Assembly: GCA_016124275.1 (NCBI GenBank)
Contig: WGOA01000029.1
Span: 58,877-122,876, forward strand
Length of the DNA: 64,000 nt
Source of the DNA: Bacteroidota bacterium
GTDB lineage: Bacteria > Bacteroidota > Bacteroidia > Chitinophagales > BACL12
Direction: 5' to 3'
This document shows, in pieces, positions 10,970 through 50,981 of this stretch (positions are counted from its first letter, which is position 1; the number at the start of each line of letters is the position of its first letter). The position numbers and the translations under genes are program-made. The notes below the pieces were generated by a model that saw nothing but the letters and a program-made list of their open reading frames with translations, ran no database searches and was not told the DNA's origin.

Positions 10970-11938
10970 CTACAGCAACTTGGCAATCAGGCTCTCCGTG
11001 CTGATGCCTTCCGCCTCTGCCTTGTAGTTGCGCACGATGCGGTGGCGCAGAATGGGTTCGGCCACGGCTTGCACATCTTCAATGTCAGGCGAGTACTTGC
11101 CTCGGGTTGCGGCGTGGGCTTTGGCCCCAAGCACCAGGAACTGCGACGCGCGCGGGCCTGCACCCCAGCTCAGGTAATTGGTCACAAACTCCGGAGCGCG
11201 CTCGGTGCCCGGCCGGGTTTTGGCGGCCAGGTTTACCGCATACTCCAACACATTGTCTGCAATAGGTATGCGTCGAATCAGGCTTTGAAAAGCACGAATC
11301 TGATCGCCGCTCAGAATTTTGTTGACGCTGGCCTGCCGATCCGTTGTGGTGGCCTTTACCACAGCCACCTCCTCTGCATACGACGGGTAATCGAGGCGGA
11401 TGTTGAACATGAAGCGATCCAGCTGCGCCTCGGGCAAGGGGTACGTCCCTTCCTGCTCAATCGGGTTCTGGGTAGCTAACACAAAAAAGGGCAGGGGAAG
11501 GGCATGGCGATGTCCTGCAGCGGTAACGCCGCGTTCCTGCATCGCTTCTAACAAGGCCGCCTGGGTCTTGGGGGGGGTTCGGTTAATCTCGTCAGCCAAC
11601 ACGATGTTGGCAAAGAGCGGCCCGGGAATAAAGCGAAAATGCCTTTGTTCATCCAGCAACTCCGATCCAATAATGTCCGAAGGCATAAGATCCGGAGTGA
11701 ACTGAATGCGCTTGAAACTCAGGTGCAGCACATCGGAAATGGTCTGGATCAACAGCGTTTTGGCAAGCCCTGGGACACCAACCAATAAACTGTGCCCATC
11801 GCAAAAGATAGACAACAGCACATAGCGAACCACATCTTCCTGCCCAACGATCACCTTGCCAATTTCGGCCCGGAGTTCTTCAAACGATCGCGCCAGCGCA
11901 TCAACAGCCTGGACTTCATTGCCTTGCGTGGAAATCAT
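10970..11938 (-). CDS. MoxR family AAA+ ATPase
   Basis: 322 aa. Walker A GVPGLAKT, Walker B/sensor VLADEINRTPPKTQAALLEAMQE, and ATQNPIEQEGTYPLPEAQLDRF typical of the AAA_3/MoxR family. Confidence 0.9.
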   Translation of the reverse strand: MISTQGNEVQAVDALARSFEELRAEIGKVIVGQEDVVRYVLLSIFCDGHSLLVGVPGLAKTLLIQTISDVLHLSFKRIQFTPDLMPSDIIGSELLDEQRHFRFIPGPLFANIVLADEINRTPPKTQAALLEAMQERGVTAAGHRHALPLPFFVLATQNPIEQEGTYPLPEAQLDRFMFNIRLDYPSYAEEVAVVKATTTDRQASVNKILSGDQIRAFQSLIRRIPIADNVLEYAVNLAAKTRPGTERAPEFVTNYLSWGAGPRASQFLVLGAKAHAATRGKYSPDIEDVQAVAEPILRHRIVRNYKAEAEGISTESLIAKLL

Positions 11939-40192: not shown

Positions 40193-41665
40193 CTACTGTT
40201 TCACGATCCGGAAAGTCTCCTGCTTTTGTTCCCAAAGTGCATGCACAAGGTACAGTCCGGCTGGAAGTGCGGAAAGGTCTAAACGTTGGCCAGTTGCCGT
40301 GCCCTGCCAAGCCGTTCTTCCCCAGACATCATAGACGATTAACTGAGCCTGTTCAGGCCCGTTGAACGCATACAAACCACTGCTCACCGTTGGGATCATT
40401 TGCCATTGGGGAATGGGGGTTGTTTCTGGAACGGATGTGCTGCCGCCAAGTGTGTCGCAGTCGCTGCCTTCCAAAGGGCCGAGGGCGTAGTTGACAGTGT
40501 TGGGGAGGCCGAAAAAAGTGCGGTTCCCACCAAGACTAACCGTCAGAGTATCAAAATCACAGGCATACCCAGACAAGTCTGGTCTATTTATTACGGATAG
40601 AGCCATGTTCTGTGGAACGAAAACTTCGGTTGGGAAAAGCAGATGTGCTGTTCCTACATATATTCTATTATTAATTCCAAGTTCTAGCTGATGAAATGAA
40701 TACATACCAGAAACTTCTGAAAGCTTTAAAAAGTTATGAACTCCGAACTGATCAGGAATGATGCTTAGTTGGTATAGAGCAGAAGGTGTAGATAAATTTT
40801 CAGTAGTATAATATATATACTTTCCATCATGTGAAAAAGCTAGACCATATCCACCTGTTAATGTATCAATTCGCAGGATTTCTTCTTGAATTTCTCCTGT
40901 GCATCGATCGAAACTCCAAACGAACAGCTGGCTTGATCCGATCATTGCTAGTTTATCACCCGAAGGCGTGAAAACCATTTCGCCAAGTACCACTTGACTA
41001 GCACTCACTGCTTCTGATAACATGATGGGAAAGTTATTCGATTCCTGAACACCATCTTCATTAATGAGTGTCAATGATAAATGAGCTTCAGGCTGCCATC
41101 CATCATCAAACTTGATGCGCAATTGTGCAAGCCACCAATCGCGACCATTGGCATGCCGCACCGATGTACTTTTCTCTGACACACCTAGTGAGTCTTCAAG
41201 GTAAGGATATATAGGAGTTAAAGCTGACTCGCTAACTACTGCACCTAACCCACCCTCCAAACGCATATCAATTAGGGTATAAACGGCAGGATTTATCAAA
41301 TAATATAAATAATCACTTCCAGGCGCAGGCAAAATCAACGCCCCTTGAGTTGTTGAGTGGTGGGGATCCAAAAGTGTGTCGTATAAGACCCCATTCAGCA
41401 TCAAATCATGGTTTCGATTCCACACTTTAGAGCAATTCGTGTAGAACAGCAGATTACCTAGTGAATCTGAAATGGTTGCTTGGGCCTCTTTAGCTAACTG
41501 TTTAGCGCCTGACTTTGCTACAACCATGCTATCCGGCTGAAACTGCAACCAGGCTTTATCTCCAAAGATCCAATTGCTTGCCTCGGGTTGAGCCATTATT
41601 GTATTTTGGTTCCATGAACCAAAAAATAGCAAAACACTATAAATGAAAACTGTGTTCAACTTCAT
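40193..41665 (-). CDS. Secreted T9SS-cargo protein (beta-propeller-like), cassette copy A small gene
   Basis: 490 aa. Signal peptide ending IMA|Q. NWIFGDKAWLQF...ISDSLGNLLFYTN and VRHANGRDWW motifs. C-terminal sorting domain ...LYLVHALWEQKQETFRIVKQ. Paralog of 45550..47025. Confidence 0.8.
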   Translation of the reverse strand: MKLNTVFIYSVLLFFGSWNQNTIMAQPEASNWIFGDKAWLQFQPDSMVVAKSGAKQLAKEAQATISDSLGNLLFYTNCSKVWNRNHDLMLNGVLYDTLLDPHHSTTQGALILPAPGSDYLYYLINPAVYTLIDMRLEGGLGAVVSESALTPIYPYLEDSLGVSEKSTSVRHANGRDWWLAQLRIKFDDGWQPEAHLSLTLINEDGVQESNNFPIMLSEAVSASQVVLGEMVFTPSGDKLAMIGSSQLFVWSFDRCTGEIQEEILRIDTLTGGYGLAFSHDGKYIYYTTENLSTPSALYQLSIIPDQFGVHNFLKLSEVSGMYSFHQLELGINNRIYVGTAHLLFPTEVFVPQNMALSVINRPDLSGYACDFDTLTVSLGGNRTFFGLPNTVNYALGPLEGSDCDTLGGSTSVPETTPIPQWQMIPTVSSGLYAFNGPEQAQLIVYDVWGRTAWQGTATGQRLDLSALPAGLYLVHALWEQKQETFRIVKQ

Positions 41666-41669
41666 CTGA

Positions 41670-44327
41670 CTACAGTTTAGAAACGAGTGCAGAATAGGTG
41701 TATCCCCTTATGCAAGAAACGGTCAATAGATAGATGCCCTTAGGGAAATCAGTAATGTCCAACTTGATTGAATCATCTTCCGCTACCGTGCTACGAAGGC
41801 GCACAACGCCATCAATTCCTGATAAAACATATTCCGCTCCCTTCTGAATAGCTGTGCTTCCATCGATTTCCACAACCAAGAACCCGGAGGTTGGATTAGG
41901 GTATAACAAAATCGGCTTTGTACCGACGGTGCCAAGATTACCCTGCCTGGGAGAAAGAGAGGCATCTATCGGAGCTAATGAATGCTGGCCAAGAATTGCT
42001 CGGGCAAAATAAACCGCATCTCCTCCATCAGTTGGATCCAAACCAGCAATAGTATGAAGAGTTGCCGTCTCACTTGAAGTGTAAGGGAGCCTGCCACCTA
42101 AAACTGCCTCCATGGCTAAACTGTCTGCTGATCGATTTAGGTATAGTGTATAAACATCCTGCCGCAATTGGTCCTTGAGACAATTAGGTACGATGGAATT
42201 CAACTTGAGCTGAGCAGAATCTACCGAGCCAGACTTTAGGTAATTAAAGAACAAGTACCACTCGTCGTAGTTGCCCAAAGCCAATTCATTCATTGCGGCA
42301 ACGTACAGGACATCTTGTGGCACATCAAGCGTCAACCAATCGGGATTGTAAGCAAAGAAATTGTACACATAGCTTTTCTCCTCATAGAAATCGCAATCAG
42401 AGCCGTCGTTGGAATCAAGCAAGTAATGAAAAGCTGAGAACAGATTGTTCCGAGCCTTCTGGGAAGGAGCTACACCCCGACCTGCGAGTCTTGGCGTTAA
42501 ATCGCATACCAAACTCGAAGAACCGGCAAGTAGTGGATCTACTCTCCTTGTACCGCTACCTATCTCTAAATTGAATGTGGCTATCGGTGCCATGTCCATA
42601 AATGCACCGTAGATAGTGGTGTAACGCCAATCAAATATCGGTGGAAAGGTGGCAGGAAACAATGGAGTCCCTAGCGTTGGATCTCCAAATGCATTGGTAA
42701 CCGCAATAGTTCTGTTTGCTGTACTTGCCGGGAACCAACTGTTCCCTGCAGCAGTCAACGTGCTAAGATTCTCGGTAATCGGTCCTATGTCCAAGCCACC
42801 ACCATCCATGCCCACCAAGCCAAATCCATATCGGCACTCATTCATCGTATTGCAGGTGAAGTTACCCCCTTGGCAATCGCCGTGGGCTGCTGCACCTACG
42901 CCGAAATCATTCATCTCATTGCGGTCAACCAAAAAATTCTGTGCCTCCGTAATATCGATACCCCGTATGTTCGTATTCATGCAGGATGTACATCCACTAC
43001 TGATGGTGTTATCAAGCACAACAAGGCCCGGTGAATATTCTGCATGAATACCTATAGAAAATTCTCCACTACATGTTCCAGGCAAGCGGACCGAAATCGT
43101 GTTCTCCGATATCTCTGCTAGGGCGCTGATTACCGAAATGCCAAATTGCAATCTGCTCAACTCGTTATTGGTAACGGAACTATAGCCACCCAGCGATGCC
43201 CGCAACTCGATTCCCGCAATCCGGCAGCTTGAATTGCTTACTACATTGGGGTTGTCCAATGTATTGTTATCAATTCCGCACGAACCTTCGGCGTTTCTTA
43301 TATAAATACCAATGCTGTCAAAATTACTGATCGTGTTGTTGATTACCTGACTATTGCCAGTTTCGTGGTACCAAACCCCATGGTTCATGGTTGGATCTGC
43401 CCCCCCTGAGCCAATGATAAGGTTGTTATCTGTAATGGAGCTTGTCATCTTAAGCGTAAAGACTCCCTTTTCACAATCTTCTATCCGGTTGTTGAATCCT
43501 GTGACGCCCGCATCTGGATATCCCACGTAAAGATTCTGATTGAAGGCATTGCCTACTGCAGCAATTCCTGCGCCAGTTCCAAATCCGGGAACTGCATTCC
43601 ATGTTCGAATGTCCTTGATCCAGTTGTTTTGGACATAGGCTATGCTTCTGGTGAAAAGTAAGCCATACTCCTGATCGTGGATAAAATTGTAACTCCCTCC
43701 GGAACCGTAAGAACTTGATGTCCGGCCAACGGTGATTCCGTCTGTAATACCATCAGCCCGCAATCCTGCGAATCCAAAACGGCCCAAATAAGGAGCAATC
43801 AAACTCGGGGCTCCGATCTCCGAGTTTTCTATAGTTCCTGGATGATTGCCCCCAAAAGGTCTTACATCGATTCCAATATAATTGTTCATCAAACGGCTAC
43901 CCCGCACTTCGAAGTTGCCCGGGTTGCCGGTTGCGTTCTCGATCAACAATGCCGTCTCAGCATGCTCTACCAGGCTGTTCACACGCACGCGAACCGCTCC
44001 TCCCGGTTCCACTCGGATTTGCTCCCACATGCTGTTCTCGCAATTGCTGATCACACTGGTCTCTATGGTCAGGGTATAGTCATCCTTGACCACGATCTCC
44101 ACACCGGCATCAACCAGGACGGAACACGTAAGGATGGTGAAGTTGTTGTTGACTTCAAAGGTGTTCTGAATATGCACCAACTCCGAAGTCCAACCCGTAC
44201 CATAGCTCGTCGACATCGAAACCGTTCCGGACGGCGTGGTCACCGTCGGCGAAAAACCCGCATCCGCCACACACTGAGCGCGCATGGGCGTGGAAAACCC
44301 TATGCCATAGACAAGTGTGCACATCAC
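41670..44327 (-). CDS. Secreted right-handed beta-helix repeat protein with a T9SS C-terminal domain, cassette copy A large gene (conserved ATG at 44403 is out of frame)
   Basis: 885 aa from the GTG at 44327. NNxI/IxDN-type beta-helix repeats throughout. C-terminal LLYPNPTSGFLVVEI...KGIYLLTV sorting domain. Paralog of 47038..49776. The upstream frame stays open through the (CA)n tract but lacks a start codon. Confidence 0.8.
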   Translation of the reverse strand: MMCTLVYGIGFSTPMRAQCVADAGFSPTVTTPSGTVSMSTSYGTGWTSELVHIQNTFEVNNNFTILTCSVLVDAGVEIVVKDDYTLTIETSVISNCENSMWEQIRVEPGGAVRVRVNSLVEHAETALLIENATGNPGNFEVRGSRLMNNYIGIDVRPFGGNHPGTIENSEIGAPSLIAPYLGRFGFAGLRADGITDGITVGRTSSSYGSGGSYNFIHDQEYGLLFTRSIAYVQNNWIKDIRTWNAVPGFGTGAGIAAVGNAFNQNLYVGYPDAGVTGFNNRIEDCEKGVFTLKMTSSITDNNLIIGSGGADPTMNHGVWYHETGNSQVINNTISNFDSIGIYIRNAEGSCGIDNNTLDNPNVVSNSSCRIAGIELRASLGGYSSVTNNELSRLQFGISVISALAEISENTISVRLPGTCSGEFSIGIHAEYSPGLVVLDNTISSGCTSCMNTNIRGIDITEAQNFLVDRNEMNDFGVGAAAHGDCQGGNFTCNTMNECRYGFGLVGMDGGGLDIGPITENLSTLTAAGNSWFPASTANRTIAVTNAFGDPTLGTPLFPATFPPIFDWRYTTIYGAFMDMAPIATFNLEIGSGTRRVDPLLAGSSSLVCDLTPRLAGRGVAPSQKARNNLFSAFHYLLDSNDGSDCDFYEEKSYVYNFFAYNPDWLTLDVPQDVLYVAAMNELALGNYDEWYLFFNYLKSGSVDSAQLKLNSIVPNCLKDQLRQDVYTLYLNRSADSLAMEAVLGGRLPYTSSETATLHTIAGLDPTDGGDAVYFARAILGQHSLAPIDASLSPRQGNLGTVGTKPILLYPNPTSGFLVVEIDGSTAIQKGAEYVLSGIDGVVRLRSTVAEDDSIKLDITDFPKGIYLLTVSCIRGYTYSALVSKL

Positions 44328-44364
44328 AAGGAAAACAGATGCCCAGTTAACCCATGCGTATTTC

Positions 44365-44391
44365 TGTGTCTGTGTGTGTGTGTGTGTGTGT
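44365..44391. repeat. Dinucleotide microsatellite: minus strand (CA)10 followed by GACACA
   Basis: The plus strand reads tgtgtc + (tg)10 + t at 44365-44391. Lies between the conserved ATG (44403) and the body of the 885-aa ORF. Confidence 0.95.
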
Positions 44392-44403
44392 TGCGGCTTC
44401 CAT

Positions 44404-44495
44404 AGCTTAATTAATGTGTGTTACGAAAATGCAATAAAGGCAAGGTAGTGCTTTTGACCGCAGCTCACAGCATGTTTTGTGTTAATTTTTATAAA
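44404..44495 (-). promoter_or_regulatory. Conserved upstream region of cassette copy A (putative promoter/5' leader)
   Basis: Shares blocks with 49777..49868 (minus strand: AAAAATTAACACAAAA and AAAGCACTAyCTTGCsTTTATTGCATTTTCGTAAyACACATTArTTAAGCTATG). No clear -7 TAnnTTTG box recognised. Confidence 0.35.
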
Positions 44496-44498
44496 AGA

Positions 44499-45512
44499 CT
44501 ACATCCCCGCCAACAGAACCGCCAACGTCTCCCCCACCGCTCTTAGCGTCTGTCGGCTGATGATCGGCATGTCATCGCGGTGGGTGTGCCAGAAGTCGCC
44601 GAAGCCTTTGGGGCTTTCGCGGTCATATTGAATGATGTCAATGGTGGGGATGCCCGCGATTTGGTTGACGTACAGGTGGTCATCCGTCAGCGGGGGAAAG
44701 GGCTCCTGGTTGTACACAAAATACGAGCGATGCCCAGCCGTTGCAGCAGCGCGCCACACCCGCTCCACGACGTCGGGGGCGTAATGCATCGAAATGCCTT
44801 CGCGGTAAAACACGGCGCCTTCCGCGCCCACCATATCCAACAGTATGCCGAACTCGGCCGAGTACCCCGTCTTTCGCGCCTGCGTGGCCCAATACTGGCT
44901 GCCCAGGCAATAGCTGTCCTCGACCTTTGGATTGCCGTAATCTTCGGTGTCAAACAGCACCATATCTATTCCTATGTCGGGGTCATTCCGGTGGAATTGC
45001 CTCGCGAGCTCGAGCAGCACCGCAACCCCGCTTCCCCCGTCATTGGCGCCCGCAATGGGCTCACTCTGCCGCGCAGAGTCTTCGTCTGCCACGGGGCGCG
45101 TGTCCCAATGGGCGCAGAGCAGCACCCGCCGCGGATGCTCCGGGTTGAAGCGCGCCGTGATGTTGCGCACCGGCAGGGTCTTGCCGTCCCAGGCCTTGAC
45201 CGTGGTTTTCTGCTCGCTGACCTCGTCCGCCCACCCGCTCAGCGCCTGCACCAGCCAGTCGCCGCACGCCTCGTGGGCAGCTGTACCCGGCACGCGCGGG
45301 CCAAACGCCACCTGCTTAGCTACGTACGCATACGCGGAGTCGGTGGAAAAGGGGGGTGGGACAACCCGCTCCACAACTTGTGGAACCTCTGGATGCGCTT
45401 GGTCTTGTTGCTTGTCCCGCTTGTTTTCACAGCCACTTAGGGAACCAACCAACGAACCTGCCAGCAACAATAAACTACCCGCCTGATAAACTTGCTTGTG
45501 GAAAAGAAACAT
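44499..45512 (-). CDS. Glutaminyl-peptide cyclotransferase (M28-fold, type II QC) lipoprotein
   Basis: 337 aa. Lipobox LSGC. LLCAHWDTRP, ANDGGSGVAVLLELAR, VLFDTEDYG, ILLDMVGA and DFWHTHRDD line up with the metal and catalytic motifs I recall for animal-type and Porphyromonas QC. Confidence 0.7.
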   Translation of the reverse strand: MFLFHKQVYQAGSLLLLAGSLVGSLSGCENKRDKQQDQAHPEVPQVVERVVPPPFSTDSAYAYVAKQVAFGPRVPGTAAHEACGDWLVQALSGWADEVSEQKTTVKAWDGKTLPVRNITARFNPEHPRRVLLCAHWDTRPVADEDSARQSEPIAGANDGGSGVAVLLELARQFHRNDPDIGIDMVLFDTEDYGNPKVEDSYCLGSQYWATQARKTGYSAEFGILLDMVGAEGAVFYREGISMHYAPDVVERVWRAAATAGHRSYFVYNQEPFPPLTDDHLYVNQIAGIPTIDIIQYDRESPKGFGDFWHTHRDDMPIISRQTLRAVGETLAVLLAGM

Positions 45513-45549
45513 CCCGTGAAGCTAGCAATTTGGGCACGTTTGACGGTCC

Positions 45550-47025
45550 TTATTGCTTCACGATCCGGAAGGTCGCTTGCTTTTGTTCCCACTGAGCATG
45601 CACGAGGTAAAGTCCGGTGGGCAAGGTTGAAAGGTCTATGCGCTGACCAGTTGCCGAGCCTTGCCAAACCGTTCTTCCCCAGACATCATACACTATCAAT
45701 ATTGCATGGTCAGGCCCGTTAAACGAATACCATCCTGCACTTACCGTGGGTGTGATTTGCCATTGGGGCAGGGTGGATGCTTCAGGAATGGCTGTGCTGC
45801 CGCCGTCTAGCGTATCGCATTCGCTGCCTTCAAGCGGGCCGAGGGCGTAGTTGACGGTGTTGGGGAGGGCCAACATAGTCCTTCTGCCGCCTAGGTACAG
45901 TCCCAATGTATCGAAATCACAAGACAATCCGGGCAAATCCGGATAATTGATTACACTTAAATTCATATTCAAAGCTGAGAAAATATCACAATTCAAAATT
46001 TTGCAACCTACTGTCATGTAAATTTTATGATCCGGGCCCATTTGCAGCTGCCCATTCGCAAATGTCCCATAATTACTACGTATATATATTTTATTTAATG
46101 CAAATTTCCCAAACTGATCTGCCTCTAAATCCAATTGGTACAAAATATTATCTCCTATATAAAATGCCGATGAACTATTAAAATACAAGTATCTTCCAGA
46201 TGGAGAAAACTCGCAAGAATGAAGATTTGATAATGAATCTACATATATTATTTCACTCCCGATTAGACCACCACACCTATCAAACTGATAGATACTAATA
46301 CTTGTGGGAAAGACTATTGCAATTGAACTCCCGGTTGGTGATATTGCCATTTGTCGAAAAGTACTAGCTGAAGTAGCGGCACGAAGGTCTAATTGAAATA
46401 TTTCCTCGACATACACTCCGTTATTGTTATTTAAATACAACACGAAAGAACTATCCCAACTTTCAGTGGCCAAATTAAAAGATGCTCGCATCTGGATTAT
46501 CCACCAATCCCTGCCATTGCCATGCCGGACAGCTACATTTCTCTCACTCCAACCAGGTACATCGGAATCGAATGGCTGCCAATTCGGAACATTCGCCATG
46601 CCCCCTAAGCCACCATTCATTGACATATCTACAATGGCATAGCGTCCAATACCAACAATTCGGTATTTGTTCTCCTGGCCATATTCTGGAAGAATTAGGA
46701 CTCCCTGAGAGTAGGACTTATAAAATGATGTATCACCGATTGGAATCTCCATTTCTGAAATCACCTCACCCAATCGATTATACACCTCTACGCCATTCGT
46801 ATAAAACAGCAAGTTTCCTAACGAGTCCGAAATACTTGCCGCAGCTTCAATGGTAGAAAACTCCAATGGCTCTTCCTTGACATCTGGTACTCCTGTGCTG
46901 AAGTCAATTAAGATATCACCATCAAGAACCCAATTAAAATGCTCTGGTTGTGCTGTAGCACTGCAGACCATAAAAACAAATGTAAAAGATGCCAAAATTT
47001 TGGCGCAGTTTAAGGTCGTAACCAT
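45550..47025 (-). CDS. Secreted T9SS-cargo protein (beta-propeller-like), cassette copy B small gene
   Basis: 491 aa. Signal peptide ending ATA|Q. SISDSLGNLLFYTN and VRHGNGRDWW. C-terminal ...LYLVHAQWEQKQATFRIVKQ. Confidence 0.8.
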   Translation of the reverse strand: MVTTLNCAKILASFTFVFMVCSATAQPEHFNWVLDGDILIDFSTGVPDVKEEPLEFSTIEAAASISDSLGNLLFYTNGVEVYNRLGEVISEMEIPIGDTSFYKSYSQGVLILPEYGQENKYRIVGIGRYAIVDMSMNGGLGGMANVPNWQPFDSDVPGWSERNVAVRHGNGRDWWIIQMRASFNLATESWDSSFVLYLNNNNGVYVEEIFQLDLRAATSASTFRQMAISPTGSSIAIVFPTSISIYQFDRCGGLIGSEIIYVDSLSNLHSCEFSPSGRYLYFNSSSAFYIGDNILYQLDLEADQFGKFALNKIYIRSNYGTFANGQLQMGPDHKIYMTVGCKILNCDIFSALNMNLSVINYPDLPGLSCDFDTLGLYLGGRRTMLALPNTVNYALGPLEGSECDTLDGGSTAIPEASTLPQWQITPTVSAGWYSFNGPDHAILIVYDVWGRTVWQGSATGQRIDLSTLPTGLYLVHAQWEQKQATFRIVKQ

Positions 47026-47037
47026 ATAGCGTTAGTT

Positions 47038-49776
47038 TTATAGCTTTGAAAACTTGATCACTTGACGCTGACCTGCTTTAGCAATGACTTCGATGTGGTA
47101 AAGACCTGCGGAAAGTTTGGACACATCTACACAACCCGATGCAAATGCTCCTGACATCAGTTGTCTGCCCTGTAGGTCGACGATGTTAAACATTTGTGAT
47201 GCAGCAGAAGCTTCTGAACCCTTGGAAAGACACAACTGCGTTGAAACCGGATTGGGGTAAACATCTATTTGTTTCCGCATATCAGTGACAGGAGCTTGCT
47301 CTCGCAGACTTCCGTCCAAATCGATTGGCGCAAGGGAGTTTGCTCCGACAATGGCGCGTGCAACATAAACTGCAGAGCCATCCGAATCAGGATTTCCTTG
47401 CGCAATGGCGATCAATGTATCTAATTCTGCCTCACTGTAGGGGAGTAGACCGGATACGCCGAACTCTACATGTAGGCTACCTAAACTCCGGTTCAAGAAA
47501 AGCTGATAAACCTCCTTGCGCAACTCTTCCTTTCTGCAGGAAGGTATCAAGCCATTAAGGGTCATAGAGGCGGAATCCAGAACCGTGCGGCCCAAATAGT
47601 CAAAAAACAGATGCCACTCATCGTAATTTGCTGCTGCCAGTTCCTCCACAACGGCTTGGTAATAGGCATCCTGAGCAACGCCCAAGGTTAACCAATCCGG
47701 GTTGCCCGCAAAGAAGTTATAGATGTAGGACTTCTCCTCAAAGTAATCACAGTTGTCTAAACTGACTCCTTCAAAGTATGTAGCATAGGCTGCAAACAAG
47801 TTGTTCCTGGCTTTCTGAGAGGGTTCACCAGTTGTTCGTAGTCCACCTAGTCTGGGGATTATGTCGCAGGGAAGGGAGGAACTTGCAGCCGTGAGGGGAA
47901 CTACTCTGAAACTTGGTAGTGATAAACTAGATGTCTCAAGGTTGAATGTAGTAATCGGTGCCATGTCATGACTAGAGCCTAAGCCAGCATCGTACCGCCA
48001 ATCGATATCCGGCGTAGCACCCGGAATTATCGGAGTACCGTAAGTTGGGATGCTTGCTGCACTCGTCACTGCAATGGTCCGGTTTGCTGTGCTGGAAGGA
48101 AGCCAGCGATTCCCTGCGGCATTAAGTAGAGATACATCATCAGTAATAGGTCCAATGTCCAGTCCACCACCGTCCATGCCGACCAAGCCATACCCATACG
48201 TGCAATCATCAACTTCATTGCACGTAAAATTCCCGCCCTGGCAATCTCCATGGGCGGCCCCTCCTACACCGCTCTCTTGCATCGTGTTACCATCCACCAA
48301 AAATCCCTCACACTCCGTAATGTCAATGGCGCGGATGTTGGTATTACTGCACGAAGGACAGTCGCTGTTGATGACATTGTCCAACAACACAAAATCAACT
48401 GAGTTCTCTGCCTGGATGCCAACCGAAAAAGCACTGCTGCAGCCTGTAGGCAATCGGTGGTTGATGATGTTGCCCGTTGCCGTTGTTCGTGCGCTGATTG
48501 TGGCCATGCCAAATTGAACGTTGTCAATCGTGTTCGTGGTGATGTCAACGATATCGTTTACTCCCATGCGTACTTCAATGCCCGCTATGCGACAAGAAGA
48601 GTTGGTAACAATGGTGGGATTGTCCAATTCATTGTCTTCAATCAACACGCGGCCCACAAAACTCCTGACGTAAATGCCAATGCTGTCAAACTCTTCAATG
48701 ATGTTGTTGGTCACCTCACCATTCTTGCCTAACTCCTGGTACCATACACCAATGTCCATGGTAGGCGTGCTTCCGCCTGAACCAAAAATCTCGTTGTTGT
48801 CGGTAAACGCCTCGTCAATGTCGTATGCCAAAACGCCTACTTCACAGTCTTCAATCCTGTTGTTGATGCCGGTTACGCCCACTCCGGGAAAGCCAACATG
48901 CAATTCTTTTGACACGCCCCCACTGGTTCCTGTTGCAGCAATCCCTACGCCTTTGATTACTGACATGGATGGGTTAAAGGTGCGGATGTTTTCAATCCAG
49001 TTGTTCTGAACAAAGGCTAAACAATTGTTGAAGAACAAGCCGTACTCCAAATCATGAATGTAGTTAAAACTGCCTCCTGCTCCATAGGAGCTTGTTGTAC
49101 GACCTACCGTGATGCCGTAGACAATGCCTGTTGCCTGCAACCCGGAGAAACCAATTTCGCCCAAATACGGAGCTATAAGGCTTGGCGCACCGATCTCTGA
49201 GTTTTCGATGGTCCCGGGGTGTCCTCCGAGGTCGGCAAATGCCTGCACTTCGATGCCCACATAATTATTCATTAACCTGCTGCCCCGGACTTCGAAATTC
49301 CCGGGATTCCCCGTCGCATTCTCAATCTGCAAGGCCTTCTCCGCATTCTGAACCAAACTGTTCAACCGCACACGAACCGCCCCACCCGGCTCCACCCGGA
49401 TATGCTCCCACATGCTGTTATCGCAATTGCTGATAACGCTGGTTTCTATGGTGAGTATATTACCGTTCTCAACCACAATTTCCACCCCTGCATCAACCAA
49501 GACAGAACAAGTAAGGATGGTAAAGTCATCGTCAACCTCAAACGTGTTCTGAATATGAACCAGCTCCGCAGTCCAGCCCGTACCATAAGTTGAAGAAACT
49601 GAAACAGAACCCGATGGCGTCGTCACAGTCGGCGAAAAACCCGCATCAGCCGCACACTGAGCGCGCATGGGCGTGGAAAAACCTATGCTGTAGAGAAGTG
49701 CGCACATCATCAGGAAAACAGATGGCCAGTTAACCCATGCGTAATTCTGTGTGTGTGTGTGTGTTGCGGCTTTCAT
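47038..49776 (-). CDS. Secreted right-handed beta-helix repeat protein with a T9SS C-terminal domain, cassette copy B large gene (intact)
   Basis: 912 aa from the ATG at 49776 (MKAATHTHTQNYAWVNWPSVFLMMCALLYSIGFSTPMRA|QC). Beta-helix repeats. C-terminal VYPNPVSTQLCL...AGLYHIEVI sorting domain. Confidence 0.85.
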   Translation of the reverse strand: MKAATHTHTQNYAWVNWPSVFLMMCALLYSIGFSTPMRAQCAADAGFSPTVTTPSGSVSVSSTYGTGWTAELVHIQNTFEVDDDFTILTCSVLVDAGVEIVVENGNILTIETSVISNCDNSMWEHIRVEPGGAVRVRLNSLVQNAEKALQIENATGNPGNFEVRGSRLMNNYVGIEVQAFADLGGHPGTIENSEIGAPSLIAPYLGEIGFSGLQATGIVYGITVGRTTSSYGAGGSFNYIHDLEYGLFFNNCLAFVQNNWIENIRTFNPSMSVIKGVGIAATGTSGGVSKELHVGFPGVGVTGINNRIEDCEVGVLAYDIDEAFTDNNEIFGSGGSTPTMDIGVWYQELGKNGEVTNNIIEEFDSIGIYVRSFVGRVLIEDNELDNPTIVTNSSCRIAGIEVRMGVNDIVDITTNTIDNVQFGMATISARTTATGNIINHRLPTGCSSAFSVGIQAENSVDFVLLDNVINSDCPSCSNTNIRAIDITECEGFLVDGNTMQESGVGGAAHGDCQGGNFTCNEVDDCTYGYGLVGMDGGGLDIGPITDDVSLLNAAGNRWLPSSTANRTIAVTSAASIPTYGTPIIPGATPDIDWRYDAGLGSSHDMAPITTFNLETSSLSLPSFRVVPLTAASSSLPCDIIPRLGGLRTTGEPSQKARNNLFAAYATYFEGVSLDNCDYFEEKSYIYNFFAGNPDWLTLGVAQDAYYQAVVEELAAANYDEWHLFFDYLGRTVLDSASMTLNGLIPSCRKEELRKEVYQLFLNRSLGSLHVEFGVSGLLPYSEAELDTLIAIAQGNPDSDGSAVYVARAIVGANSLAPIDLDGSLREQAPVTDMRKQIDVYPNPVSTQLCLSKGSEASAASQMFNIVDLQGRQLMSGAFASGCVDVSKLSAGLYHIEVIAKAGQRQVIKFSKL
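49748..49764. repeat. Dinucleotide microsatellite: minus strand (CA)8 inside codons 5-10 of the 912-aa gene
   Basis: The plus strand reads (tg)8 + t at 49748-49764. Encodes THTHTQ. Confidence 0.95.
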
Positions 49777-49868
49777 AGCTTAACTAATGTGTATTACGAA
49801 AATGCAATAAACGCAAGATAGTGCTTTCTTCTACACTTTAAAGAGCTTTTTGTGTTAATTTTTGAAAA
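49777..49868 (-). promoter_or_regulatory. Conserved upstream region of cassette copy B (putative promoter/5' leader)
   Basis: Homologous to 44404..44495 (see that feature). Confidence 0.35.
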
Positions 49869-49871
49869 AAT

Positions 49872-50981
49872 CTACTTTCCCAACTCCACCACAATTGGGT
49901 AATGATCGGTAATCTTTCTGGGAAGCGCCGAATAACGCAGCACTTCCAAAGCTGTATCCACCAAAACGTAGTCGATGCGCACACCGGGCAAAGAAGCGTG
50001 CGTGCGGGCTAAACCGCGGCCAGCTACAGAGAAGGCGTCCTGCAAACCAAAAGATACCCTATGGTATGCATAACTTTGCGGAGGGTCGTTGAAATCGCCG
50101 CAGAGTACCACAGGCCAGGGACTATCCAGTACAGCATCCTCCAACCGGGTGGCTTGGTCGGCGCGGGCTTGATACGCATCGCGGAATTTGAGCAAGGTAA
50201 CCCGGCGGGTATTGGCTTCGCTCAATTCAGAAACGGCATCATCGAGGCCGAAGTCTTCCGTAGATAAATGTATGCTTTGCAGGTGGGTGTTGAAGATACG
50301 GATCCGGCCGGATGGGGTCTCCAGGTCGGCGTATTGGCAACCGTTGAGCACGCCCCCCCCCGGAAAATCGACCTCCCCGGCCTCCAGCACAGGGTAGCGC
50401 GACACAATGGCCAGCCCCCACTGCCGTCCCTTCTTATCGCGCAGCGCTTCCCAAAAACTGAAGTAGGGCAAACCGGTTGCCTCGCGCACCAGCTTCTGGT
50501 GGTCATTGCCTTCTACAGTTGGCATCGTGAAGTACTCCTGAAAACAGATCACGTCAGGCTGCTGGGCAGCCAGAAGGGCCAGAATGGAATCGCGGCCTGC
50601 GAACCGCACATCCGGTGTGTTCTTGTTAAACACGCGCACGTTCCACGATAGAATGCGCAGCGAAGACGGTTGCGCTGTGGCAAGGCTGTCCAGCCCTTCC
50701 ACCGAACGTTCCTTTCCAAAAGACACATAAGGCCAGCGCAGATAGTGTGCACTTTCGCGCAAGGCCGGAAGCAAGGCAACCGCCGCAATGCCCGCAAAAA
50801 CCCATTTGCGGCCAGCCAGCCAGAAAATCAGAAACAGCCCCTGCAGCCCCACTAAAATGGGAAACACCAGGCCGGCAAATGCCGCCGGCCAAAACGTGCG
50901 CGGGTCCAGGTAAGGCGCCATATAGGCCACCCCCAGCGCAGCCATGACAGCCAGGTTTAGTAAAAATCCGATCCAGCGCAT
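49872..50981 (-). CDS. Endonuclease/exonuclease/phosphatase (EEP) family membrane protein
   Basis: 369 aa. About 3 N-terminal TM segments. EEP motifs LRILSWNV, VLCGDFND and ITDHYPIVVEL. Confidence 0.8.
   Translation of the reverse strand: MRWIGFLLNLAVMAALGVAYMAPYLDPRTFWPAAFAGLVFPILVGLQGLFLIFWLAGRKWVFAGIAAVALLPALRESAHYLRWPYVSFGKERSVEGLDSLATAQPSSLRILSWNVRVFNKNTPDVRFAGRDSILALLAAQQPDVICFQEYFTMPTVEGNDHQKLVREATGLPYFSFWEALRDKKGRQWGLAIVSRYPVLEAGEVDFPGGGVLNGCQYADLETPSGRIRIFNTHLQSIHLSTEDFGLDDAVSELSEANTRRVTLLKFRDAYQARADQATRLEDAVLDSPWPVVLCGDFNDPPQSYAYHRVSFGLQDAFSVAGRGLARTHASLPGVRIDYVLVDTALEVLRYSALPRKITDHYPIVVELGK

Follow-up and report, generated by a model that had tools for sequence, protein, structure and literature searches.

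The 64-kb stretch of contig WGOA01000029.1 analysed here (hereafter the window) contains two paralogous genes for beta-helix proteins that carry a C-terminal sorting domain (CTD) of the type IX secretion system (T9SS). In each of them a perfect (CA)n tract lies just behind a conserved ATG, within the region coding for the signal peptide. This tract is probably an intragenic slipped-strand contingency switch of the simple-sequence-repeat (SSR) type, with the first gene (paralog 1) present in the OFF state and the second (paralog 2) in the ON state. The locus shows those defining traits of intragenic SSR contingency loci that could be tested, namely where the repeat lies, how long its unit is, tract lengths that vary between conserved flanks, and the occurrence of both ON and OFF alleles. 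The mechanism would be a classical one in an unusual setting, a free-living member of the Chitinophagales and the cargo of a T9SS.

CA tracts at the 5′ ends of the two paralogs

On the minus strand, paralog 1 reads GAAGCCGCA-A(CA)10 from the ATG at 44403, with the codons ATG GAA GCC GCA ahead of A(CA)10. The tract is followed by GAC ACA GAA ATA CGC ATG GGT TAA, the stop codon occupying 44349–44347. The open reading frame (ORF) of 885 amino acids lies in frame +1 relative to this ATG and has its first possible start at GTG 44327 and the next at ATG 44324; upstream of these codons the same frame is open through the tract (WKPQHTHTHTQTQKYAWVNWASVFLVMC...; …HTHTHTQTQKYAWVNWASVFLVMCTLVYGIGFSTPMRAQC…). 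By frame arithmetic, the gain of one CA unit or the loss of two would fuse ATG 44403 to the paralog 1 ORF. Paralog 2 begins ATG AAA GCC GCA A(CA)8 G AAT TAC and is open from this ATG for 912 amino acids. A preliminary description of the sequence had reported the out-of-frame ATG with its A(CA)10 and early stop, the repair of the frame by one added or two deleted units, and a resulting N-terminus like that of the paralog at 49776. This description proved correct in every detail.

Both are perfect repeats that begin 10 nt behind the ATG, at the 5′ end of the coding sequence. With a unit of 2 nt, every unit gained or lost shifts the frame, as was seen in three-frame translations of all alleles. 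The window has no other dinucleotide repeat of at least 5 units, and a (CA)8 match was expected 0.00 times on the basis of 100 dinucleotide-preserving shuffles. In 203 kb of related sequence (overlapping loci included), no dinucleotide repeat of at least 6 units was found elsewhere.

Tract length and state in related assemblies

Tract lengths were compared across consensus assemblies, comprising a Logan contig, metagenome contigs and a metagenome-assembled genome (MAG), as the preliminary description had proposed for related strains. The alleles are listed in Table 1.

Table 1. Number of CA units (n) and reading-frame state of the tract in the window and in related assemblies
Assembly	Source	Locus	n	State
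Window p1	this window	paralog 1	10	OFF
Window p2	this window	paralog 2	8	ON
L001	Logan SRR10063240	paralog 2	9	OFF
L001	Logan SRR10063240	paralog 1	10	OFF
L002	metagenome contig	P0003 ortholog	11	OFF
L003	metagenome contig	P0003 ortholog	7	OFF
L004	metagenome contig	P0003 ortholog	8	OFF
L005	metagenome contig	P0003 ortholog	8	OFF
L006	metagenome contig	p2-like allele at P0003 locus	13	OFF
L007	MAG JTS-RE84	single cassette	10	OFF
L011–L014	mat metagenomes	mat lineage	9, interrupted	OFF

Nearly identical to the window is the Logan contig L001, whose source is a New Zealand geothermal sample taken at 34.5 °C (PMC7692377). The two sequences align over 5,584 nt with 3 mismatches, and their sole indel is a single CA unit in the tract of paralog 2 (9 versus 8), so that both states of this gene have been recovered, ON in the window and OFF in L001. 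All three substitutions fall within 8 nt of paralog 2 (window about 47916–47923; L001:2021–2028), where they change SLS versus VTP, and their clustering suggests a single multi-nucleotide event or micro-conversion.

A second set of near-identical alleles came from the P0003 locus, whose product is 78% identical to paralog 1 and is the same 885-amino acid protein on L002–L005. These alleles read ATG AGC ACC GCA A(CA)n ATT AC, and for them the ON state needs n to be a multiple of 3. In pairwise blastn alignments with L002, the contigs L003, L004 and L005 showed 26, 35 and 0 mismatches over 15.1, 11.0 and 4.7 kb, respectively (identity 99.6–100%), and the tract was the single gap each time. Overall, 0–39 single-nucleotide polymorphisms (SNPs) separated these alleles. 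Because L005 and L002 differ by 0 bases in 4.7 kb and by three repeat units, the tract would appear to mutate orders of magnitude faster than a normal site. With 8 versus 9 units in paralog 2 and 7, 8, 8 and 11 units at the P0003 locus, near-identical assemblies that differ in tract length lend support to the earlier proposal of a slipped-strand switch caught in its OFF state. Among the alleles read, no ON allele of paralog 1 or of the P0003 ortholog was seen. An exact look-up of flanking genes for more alleles returned only L001 for the M28 peptidase gene and no record for the Exo_endo_phos gene.

In the mechanism that we propose, replication slippage would add or remove CA units of 2 nt each, and one tract-length class in three would place the ATG in frame with the mature protein of 870 amino acids. 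Alleles of this ON class would encode a full Sec signal peptide (MK/E-AA-(TH)n-...hydrophobic core...A, cleaved before QC), leading to export and then to handling by the T9SS via the C-terminal domain. After such a cleavage an N-terminal pyroglutamate is expected from the 'Q-rule' of Bacteroidetes, and the exported ON product would probably gain this residue before being secreted or anchored by the T9SS. In the two OFF classes the ribosome would make a peptide of 17–23 residues and then stop, either at a UAA that precedes the internal start by about 26 nt or at a UGA overlapping the internal AUGAUG, and little or no exportable protein would result. Expression of the partner T9SS gene, 4–12 nt downstream, would probably fall too, through polarity or coupling. 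If the two paralogs switch independently, four combinations would arise, of which the window would represent paralog 1 OFF with paralog 2 ON. On this model slippage would be frequent and reversible within a population, OFF alleles would lack the surface protein, and the benefit may lie in bet-hedging with a structure that is secreted or exposed at the surface, phage, grazers and changing substrates being possible selective agents. For tracts of 8–11 dinucleotide units, switching at about 1e-5 to 1e-3 per generation would be expected.

A more far-reaching version, which we hold to be rather unlikely, is a selectively maintained switch with three states (a full signal peptide, a leader ORF ending well upstream, and a UGAUG stop with reinitiation) on a recombining family of paired T9SS cargo cassettes of free-living, geothermal and mat-dwelling Chitinophagales. 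Together with the swapping of p1-like and p2-like bodies at one locus behind an unchanged 5′ end, it would form a surface-variation system under phage or grazer pressure outside any host. If true, this would be an SSR contingency system without earlier example among T9SS cargo or environmental Bacteroidota.

The upstream ATG and rival explanations

Whether the upstream ATG is the true start was judged by its conservation and by the leader that it would encode. It is invariant and lies exactly 9 nt before the tract in all six aligned lineages or loci. The block ATG+9 nt+A(CA)n is kept in both window paralogs, in JTS-RE84 (n=10), at the P0003 locus and in the mat lineage, and codons 2–4 vary partly by synonymous third-position changes (AAA/AAG, GCC/GCG). 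Conservation extends to the P0003 locus even though it has a different genomic context, with unrelated upstream DNA and homology to the window that starts only at the tract. Between the tract and the internal ATG the main frame is open in every lineage and encodes the first half of the hydrophobic core (WPSVFL|MMCALLYSIGF), and in the JTS-RE84 and mat lineages K/R residues stand ahead of this core (AWFKRTIVCLVMSAF…; LLAVRGLKFLMIIMV…). A candidate N-terminal Sec signal peptide was seen only when translation was read from the upstream ATG, in the ON frame, as judged by a crude proxy of hydrophobicity and charge rather than a trained predictor. Most of the full-length distant homologs that were read have canonical leaders such as MKTLIKRVPAYLCLILFGFINIKSQA, cleaved before QC, and the mature QC is conserved; canonical MK...A|Q signal peptides occur in distant family members as well as in the partner genes.

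The serious rival to a switch is a leader that is non-coding or holds an upstream ORF (uORF). The tract would still be hypermutable, but translation would begin at an internal ATG, GTG or TTG, and tract length would be neutral or would only tune expression through the position of the uORF stop. Several observations favour this reading or weigh against the switch. Nine of the ten alleles read are out of frame, window p2 being the exception; a non-coding leader would also give mostly OFF alleles, with one-third in frame expected by chance, and the probability of at most one in-frame allele among about 8 independent ones is roughly 0.2. Internal ATGATG or GTGATG codons are present in most lineages, and in JTS-RE84 a TTG downstream of the tract (L007:7611) gives a respectable signal peptide (MLAVRGLKFLMIIMVTFSKFSFG, cleaved before QC). 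In one OFF class (L001, L003) the leader ORF stops at a UGA overlapping the internal AUG; this UGAUG is a classic reinitiation arrangement and could allow some protein with a truncated leader to be made. At the P0003 locus, a p2-like allele found in two independent assemblies (L006:3490–3525, L016:1–45) has lost a single T between the tract and ATGATG; this 1-nt deletion puts a TAA in the main frame such that no tract length can fuse the upstream ATG, and this uncoupled allele still has an intact 889-amino acid ORF in L016. The distant homolog P0007 apparently starts at a TTG with a short leader. Finally, sigma-70-type sites were not above the number in shuffles (12 versus 12.1), and no promoter consensus could be assigned.

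Nevertheless, we consider the internal-start leader unlikely. Starting at the internal ATG or GTG yields leaders of 13–17 residues (16–17 from the GTG/ATG of paralog 1) that lack K/R and have their hydrophobic core cut, unlike the family norm. The open main frame between tract and internal ATG, the K/R residues of two lineages and the retention of the ATG block where upstream DNA has been replaced likewise speak against an internal start. Moreover, the lineage frozen in the OFF state has pseudogenised copies, and the uncoupled allele is broken into 724+159 amino acids in L006. Normal initiation at the internal GTG/ATG, which the preliminary description had named as the outcome that would speak against a switch, is thus weakened by the lack of K/R and the cut core, although it keeps some plausibility.

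Decay was weighed next to the slipped-strand switch as a reading in which the genes are dying pseudogenes and the repeat frameshift is one of several inactivating lesions instead of a reversible change. The mat lineage (L008, L011–L014) fits this description. Here an A>C change interrupts the A(CA)9 tract (ACACACACCCACACACACA), which is identical in four contigs and out of frame; nonsense codons have arisen independently in the genes of this lineage, at mature position 60 in one population and 104 in others; and the paralog-2 copy has shrunk to about 100 codons by internal deletion (L011:2864–5509, L012:3001–5643, L008:2–2500, L013:3001–3306, L014:142–447). The split gene of L006 and the predominance of OFF alleles point the same way. 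Against this, uninterrupted ORFs of 885–912 amino acids are found in window p1, window p2, P0003, P0157 and JTS-RE84, four of these intact ORFs being 59–78% identical, and their lesions lie only at the tract. One repeat unit and 3 SNPs separate the ON allele of paralog 2 from the OFF allele. For paralog 1 versus P0003, both of them OFF alleles, the ratio of nonsynonymous to synonymous divergence (dN/dS) is 0.099 with dS about 1.5, which indicates purifying selection and is what one would expect of a gene that is in use but switched on only part of the time; this pair was used because the near-clonal P0003 alleles had one SNP in the gene, too few for an SNP-based test of selection. Since a perfect tract of at least 7 units persists in four lineages with saturated synonymous sites, the repeat itself appears to be kept by selection. 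A frozen tract accompanies gene death and a perfect tract intact genes, and general decay is very unlikely as an account of the locus.

Least probable of all is that the length differences arose in sequencing or assembly, by PCR stutter or collapse of low-complexity sequence. Dinucleotide repeats do stutter in PCR-based libraries, and two contigs end in or right after the tract (L016 inside it, and L001). The tracts are only 14–26 nt, however, well within single reads and k-mers; samples of independent origin share lengths (n=8 in L004 and L005, n=10 for paralog 1 in the window and L001); and differences reach 4 units while the flanks are otherwise indel-free over a summed 36 kb of alignment.

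Four further candidates were set aside. A length-variable (Thr-His)n protein motif that stays in frame was ruled out by tract differences of 1, 3 and 4 units, on the grounds that these shift the frame. Known cases of transcriptional slippage and programmed frameshifting need homopolymer runs, and either process acting on (CA)n was given low weight for this reason. A known RNA element was ruled out by Rfam, which gave no match at E≤1 over 44200–50000, and a structured leader was ruled out by the folding of the 141-nt leader, which was no better than that of shuffles (z=0.25). No TAnnTTTG element of the Bacteroidota type was present at ≤100 nt from either ATG in the window.

Known systems, cargo proteins and genomic context

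The closest parallel is oipA (hopH) of Helicobacter pylori, in which slipped-strand mispairing at a CT repeat within the signal-peptide coding sequence turns the gene ON or OFF, with many tract patterns among strains (PMC10564699). As in oipA, and also in sabA, babA and other Hop genes, the dinucleotide repeat discussed here lies a few codons after the ATG in the signal-peptide region of a surface protein, and the conserved C-terminal end of the signal peptide identifies ON alleles. In contrast, oipA encodes a Hop beta-barrel outer membrane protein, has CT as its unit and belongs to a human pathogen of the Campylobacterota, whereas the present genes encode beta-helix T9SS cargo, have CA as their unit and belong to free-living Chitinophagales. 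The switch here also sits on duplicated two-gene cassettes, and the effect on expression, proven for oipA, is a predicted one here. By this comparison, the CA switch would be an analogue and not a homologue of oipA.

The opa genes of Neisseria carry CTCTT pentamer repeats in their signal-peptide coding region, and their switching rates have been measured. They share with the present locus an intragenic repeat in the leader region of a multi-copy surface family, whose paralogs switch independently, or would do so here, to give combinatorial expression; they differ in the pentamer unit, in encoding outer membrane beta-barrels and in belonging to a host-restricted pathogen, while the evidence here is cross-sample polymorphism only. 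SSR hypermutation, translational frameshifts, surface-related genes and near-clonal polymorphism are likewise shared with the contingency loci of Campylobacter jejuni and Haemophilus influenzae (poly-G, tetranucleotides), although the repeat units and the organisms differ and those genomes each have many such loci, compared with dinucleotide tracts in only two paralogs in 64 kb here. Within the same phylum, the invertible promoters of Bacteroides (capsule, SusC/D) have the same outcome of stochastic ON/OFF surface structures; there, site-specific recombinases invert DNA, whereas slippage would act here, with neither inverted repeats nor an invertase taking part. In a 2025 review of phase variation, Bacteroides appears only in connection with invertase systems (PMC11868660). 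In the library searched, full-text queries turned up no research paper linking type IX secretion or Bacteroidota with slipped-strand switching, an absence that is not proof; type IX secretion and slipped-strand phase variation came together there only in one general review.

Contingency loci have been regarded as typical of pathogens and commensals adapted to a host, and phase variation in Bacteroidota has been described almost only as invertase-driven. If the switch is real, localised hypermutation would serve free-living bacteria too, and it would be conserved across several species-level lineages of environmental Chitinophagales. The locus would allow the selective agent to be tested, be it phage receptors, grazing or surface attachment. 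SSR-aware annotation would restore true N-termini that gene callers truncate, and the phase states of whole populations could be read from metagenomic pile-ups at such tracts. Gene callers cut almost all of the relatives studied here at an internal Met, calling them at 876, 885, 770 and 724 amino acids.

The features of the two cassettes are collected in Table 2. The window holds two tandem two-gene cassettes, each of a paralog and its partner, and the pair is present at all related loci. Partner gene 1 is probably co-transcribed with paralog 1. The partner genes have a signal peptide of their own (MKLNTVFIYSVLLFFGSWNQNTIMA, cleaved before QPE).

Table 2. Features of the two cassettes in the window
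Feature	Position	Strand	Remark
Partner gene 1, 490 amino acids, own signal peptide, T9SS CTD	40193..41665	-	4 nt after paralog 1 stop
Paralog 1 body, 885-amino acid right-handed beta-helix protein with T9SS type A C-terminal sorting domain	41670..44327	-	
Remaining signal-peptide coding part of paralog 1, main frame (..QTQKYAWVNWASVFLVMCTLVYGIGFSTPMRA, then QC)	44279..44370	-	predicted cleavage before conserved QC
OFF-state leader ORF of paralog 1, 18 codons, MEAATHTHTHTDTEIRMG	44347..44403	-	stop TAA 44349–44347
(CA)10 tract of paralog 1	44371..44390	-	then imperfect extension GACACAG (44364–44370)
Conserved ATG start codon of paralog 1	44401..44403	-	now out of frame with ORF body
Intergenic region upstream of paralog 1, 95 nt	44404..44498	-	conserved block CTAyCTTGC-TTTATTGCATTTTCGTAA, candidate promoter (alignment)
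Partner gene 2, 491 amino acids, T9SS CTD	45550..47025	-	12 nt after paralog 2
Paralog 2, 912 amino acids, ON allele	47038..49776	-	ATG in frame with ORF
(CA)8 tract of paralog 2	49748..49763	-	(CA)9, OFF, for paralog 2 in Logan contig L001

For identification of the proteins, Pfam and NCBIfam models were used, with TIGR04183 and PF18962 as the models of the T9SS C-terminal sorting domain. Both paralogs contain Beta_helix/NosD repeats and a T9SS type A CTD; paralog 1 matched PF13229 at 9.4e-11. With the NCBIfam CTD model, paralogs 1 and 2 scored 25.6 and 28.1 bits (cutoff 23) and the partner genes 33.2 and 38.0, while with the Pfam CTD model paralog 2 scored 32.3 bits against a cutoff of 27 and paralog 1, at 26.6, fell slightly below it. 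T9SSs are common in the order Chitinophagales, to which the closest named relative, a MAG, belongs. Paralog 2 was modelled with AlphaFold2 from a shallow alignment (mean predicted local distance difference test, pLDDT, 62); the model contains a confident beta-helix at residues ~65–500 (pLDDT 70–93), an unmodelled stretch at 503–659, a helical domain at ~655–810 and a beta-sandwich CTD at 840–912. The best Foldseek matches were weak (E about 2e-4, TM 0.2–0.3) and comprised phage tailspikes, GH87 and alginate epimerases/lyases; the CTD was a good match for the CTDs of NucA and RemA in T9SS complexes (NucA CTD 8glk_D, TMt 0.76). A PDB sequence search with the cargo protein gave no homolog. The fold search thus points to a generic beta-helix resemblance, from which no catalytic role is assignable; a glycan-binding or glycan-cleaving surface protein would be the obvious guess.

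The close family is small, with 7 clusters among 5.8 billion proteins, and HMMER added 265 further, more distant representatives. A scan of genome contigs of GTDB species representatives found the family only in 'MAG: Chitinophagales bacterium JTS-RE84', and a scan of metagenome contigs found four loci, all of the mat lineage. JTS-RE84 shares with the window the synteny MutL-rhomboid-rhomboid-Exo_endo_phos-M28-cassette-E1 dehydrogenase at 70–86% nucleotide identity. It has a single cassette after the M28 peptidase (window 45550–49871 versus L007:6288–8000), whereas in the window an extra cassette (paralog 2 and partner 2) is inserted between Exo_endo_phos and M28; the duplicated unit takes in the 95-nt upstream region. 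P0007, a distant homolog with 40% identity that lacks a CA tract (L009:470–600), reads ATG TAA and is then open through a plausible signal peptide (NILEHTEFGSLRNLPVLASLIVALLFTASSVEG, cleaved before QC), which could reflect either a nonsense mutation at codon 2 or a TTG start.

At the P0003 locus, where the flanks are 98.4% identical, the gene has either the paralog-1-like body of P0003 or the paralog-2-like body of P0157/P0002, depending on the population (L002:9931–12658 versus L016:1–2711 and L006:3447–5694). The two bodies share near-identical first ~200 codons and the CA tract, which suggests that a cassette was replaced, or a gene converted, while the 5′ end stayed constant. The gene immediately upstream of this relocated cassette is of the Abi_2 (abortive-infection-like) type (L002:8929–9789).

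Homopolymeric runs were also recorded. The Exo_endo_phos gene upstream of paralog 2 (49872..50981, minus strand) has a G9 run at 50353–50361 that encodes Pro-Gly-Gly-Gly; its mat-lineage ortholog has G10 (L013:2289–2298), and both versions are in frame. Other homopolymers of at least 8 nt in the window are at 11570 (G8), 21883 (C9), 26942 (C8), 27347 (G8), 53503 (C8) and 58835 (A8).

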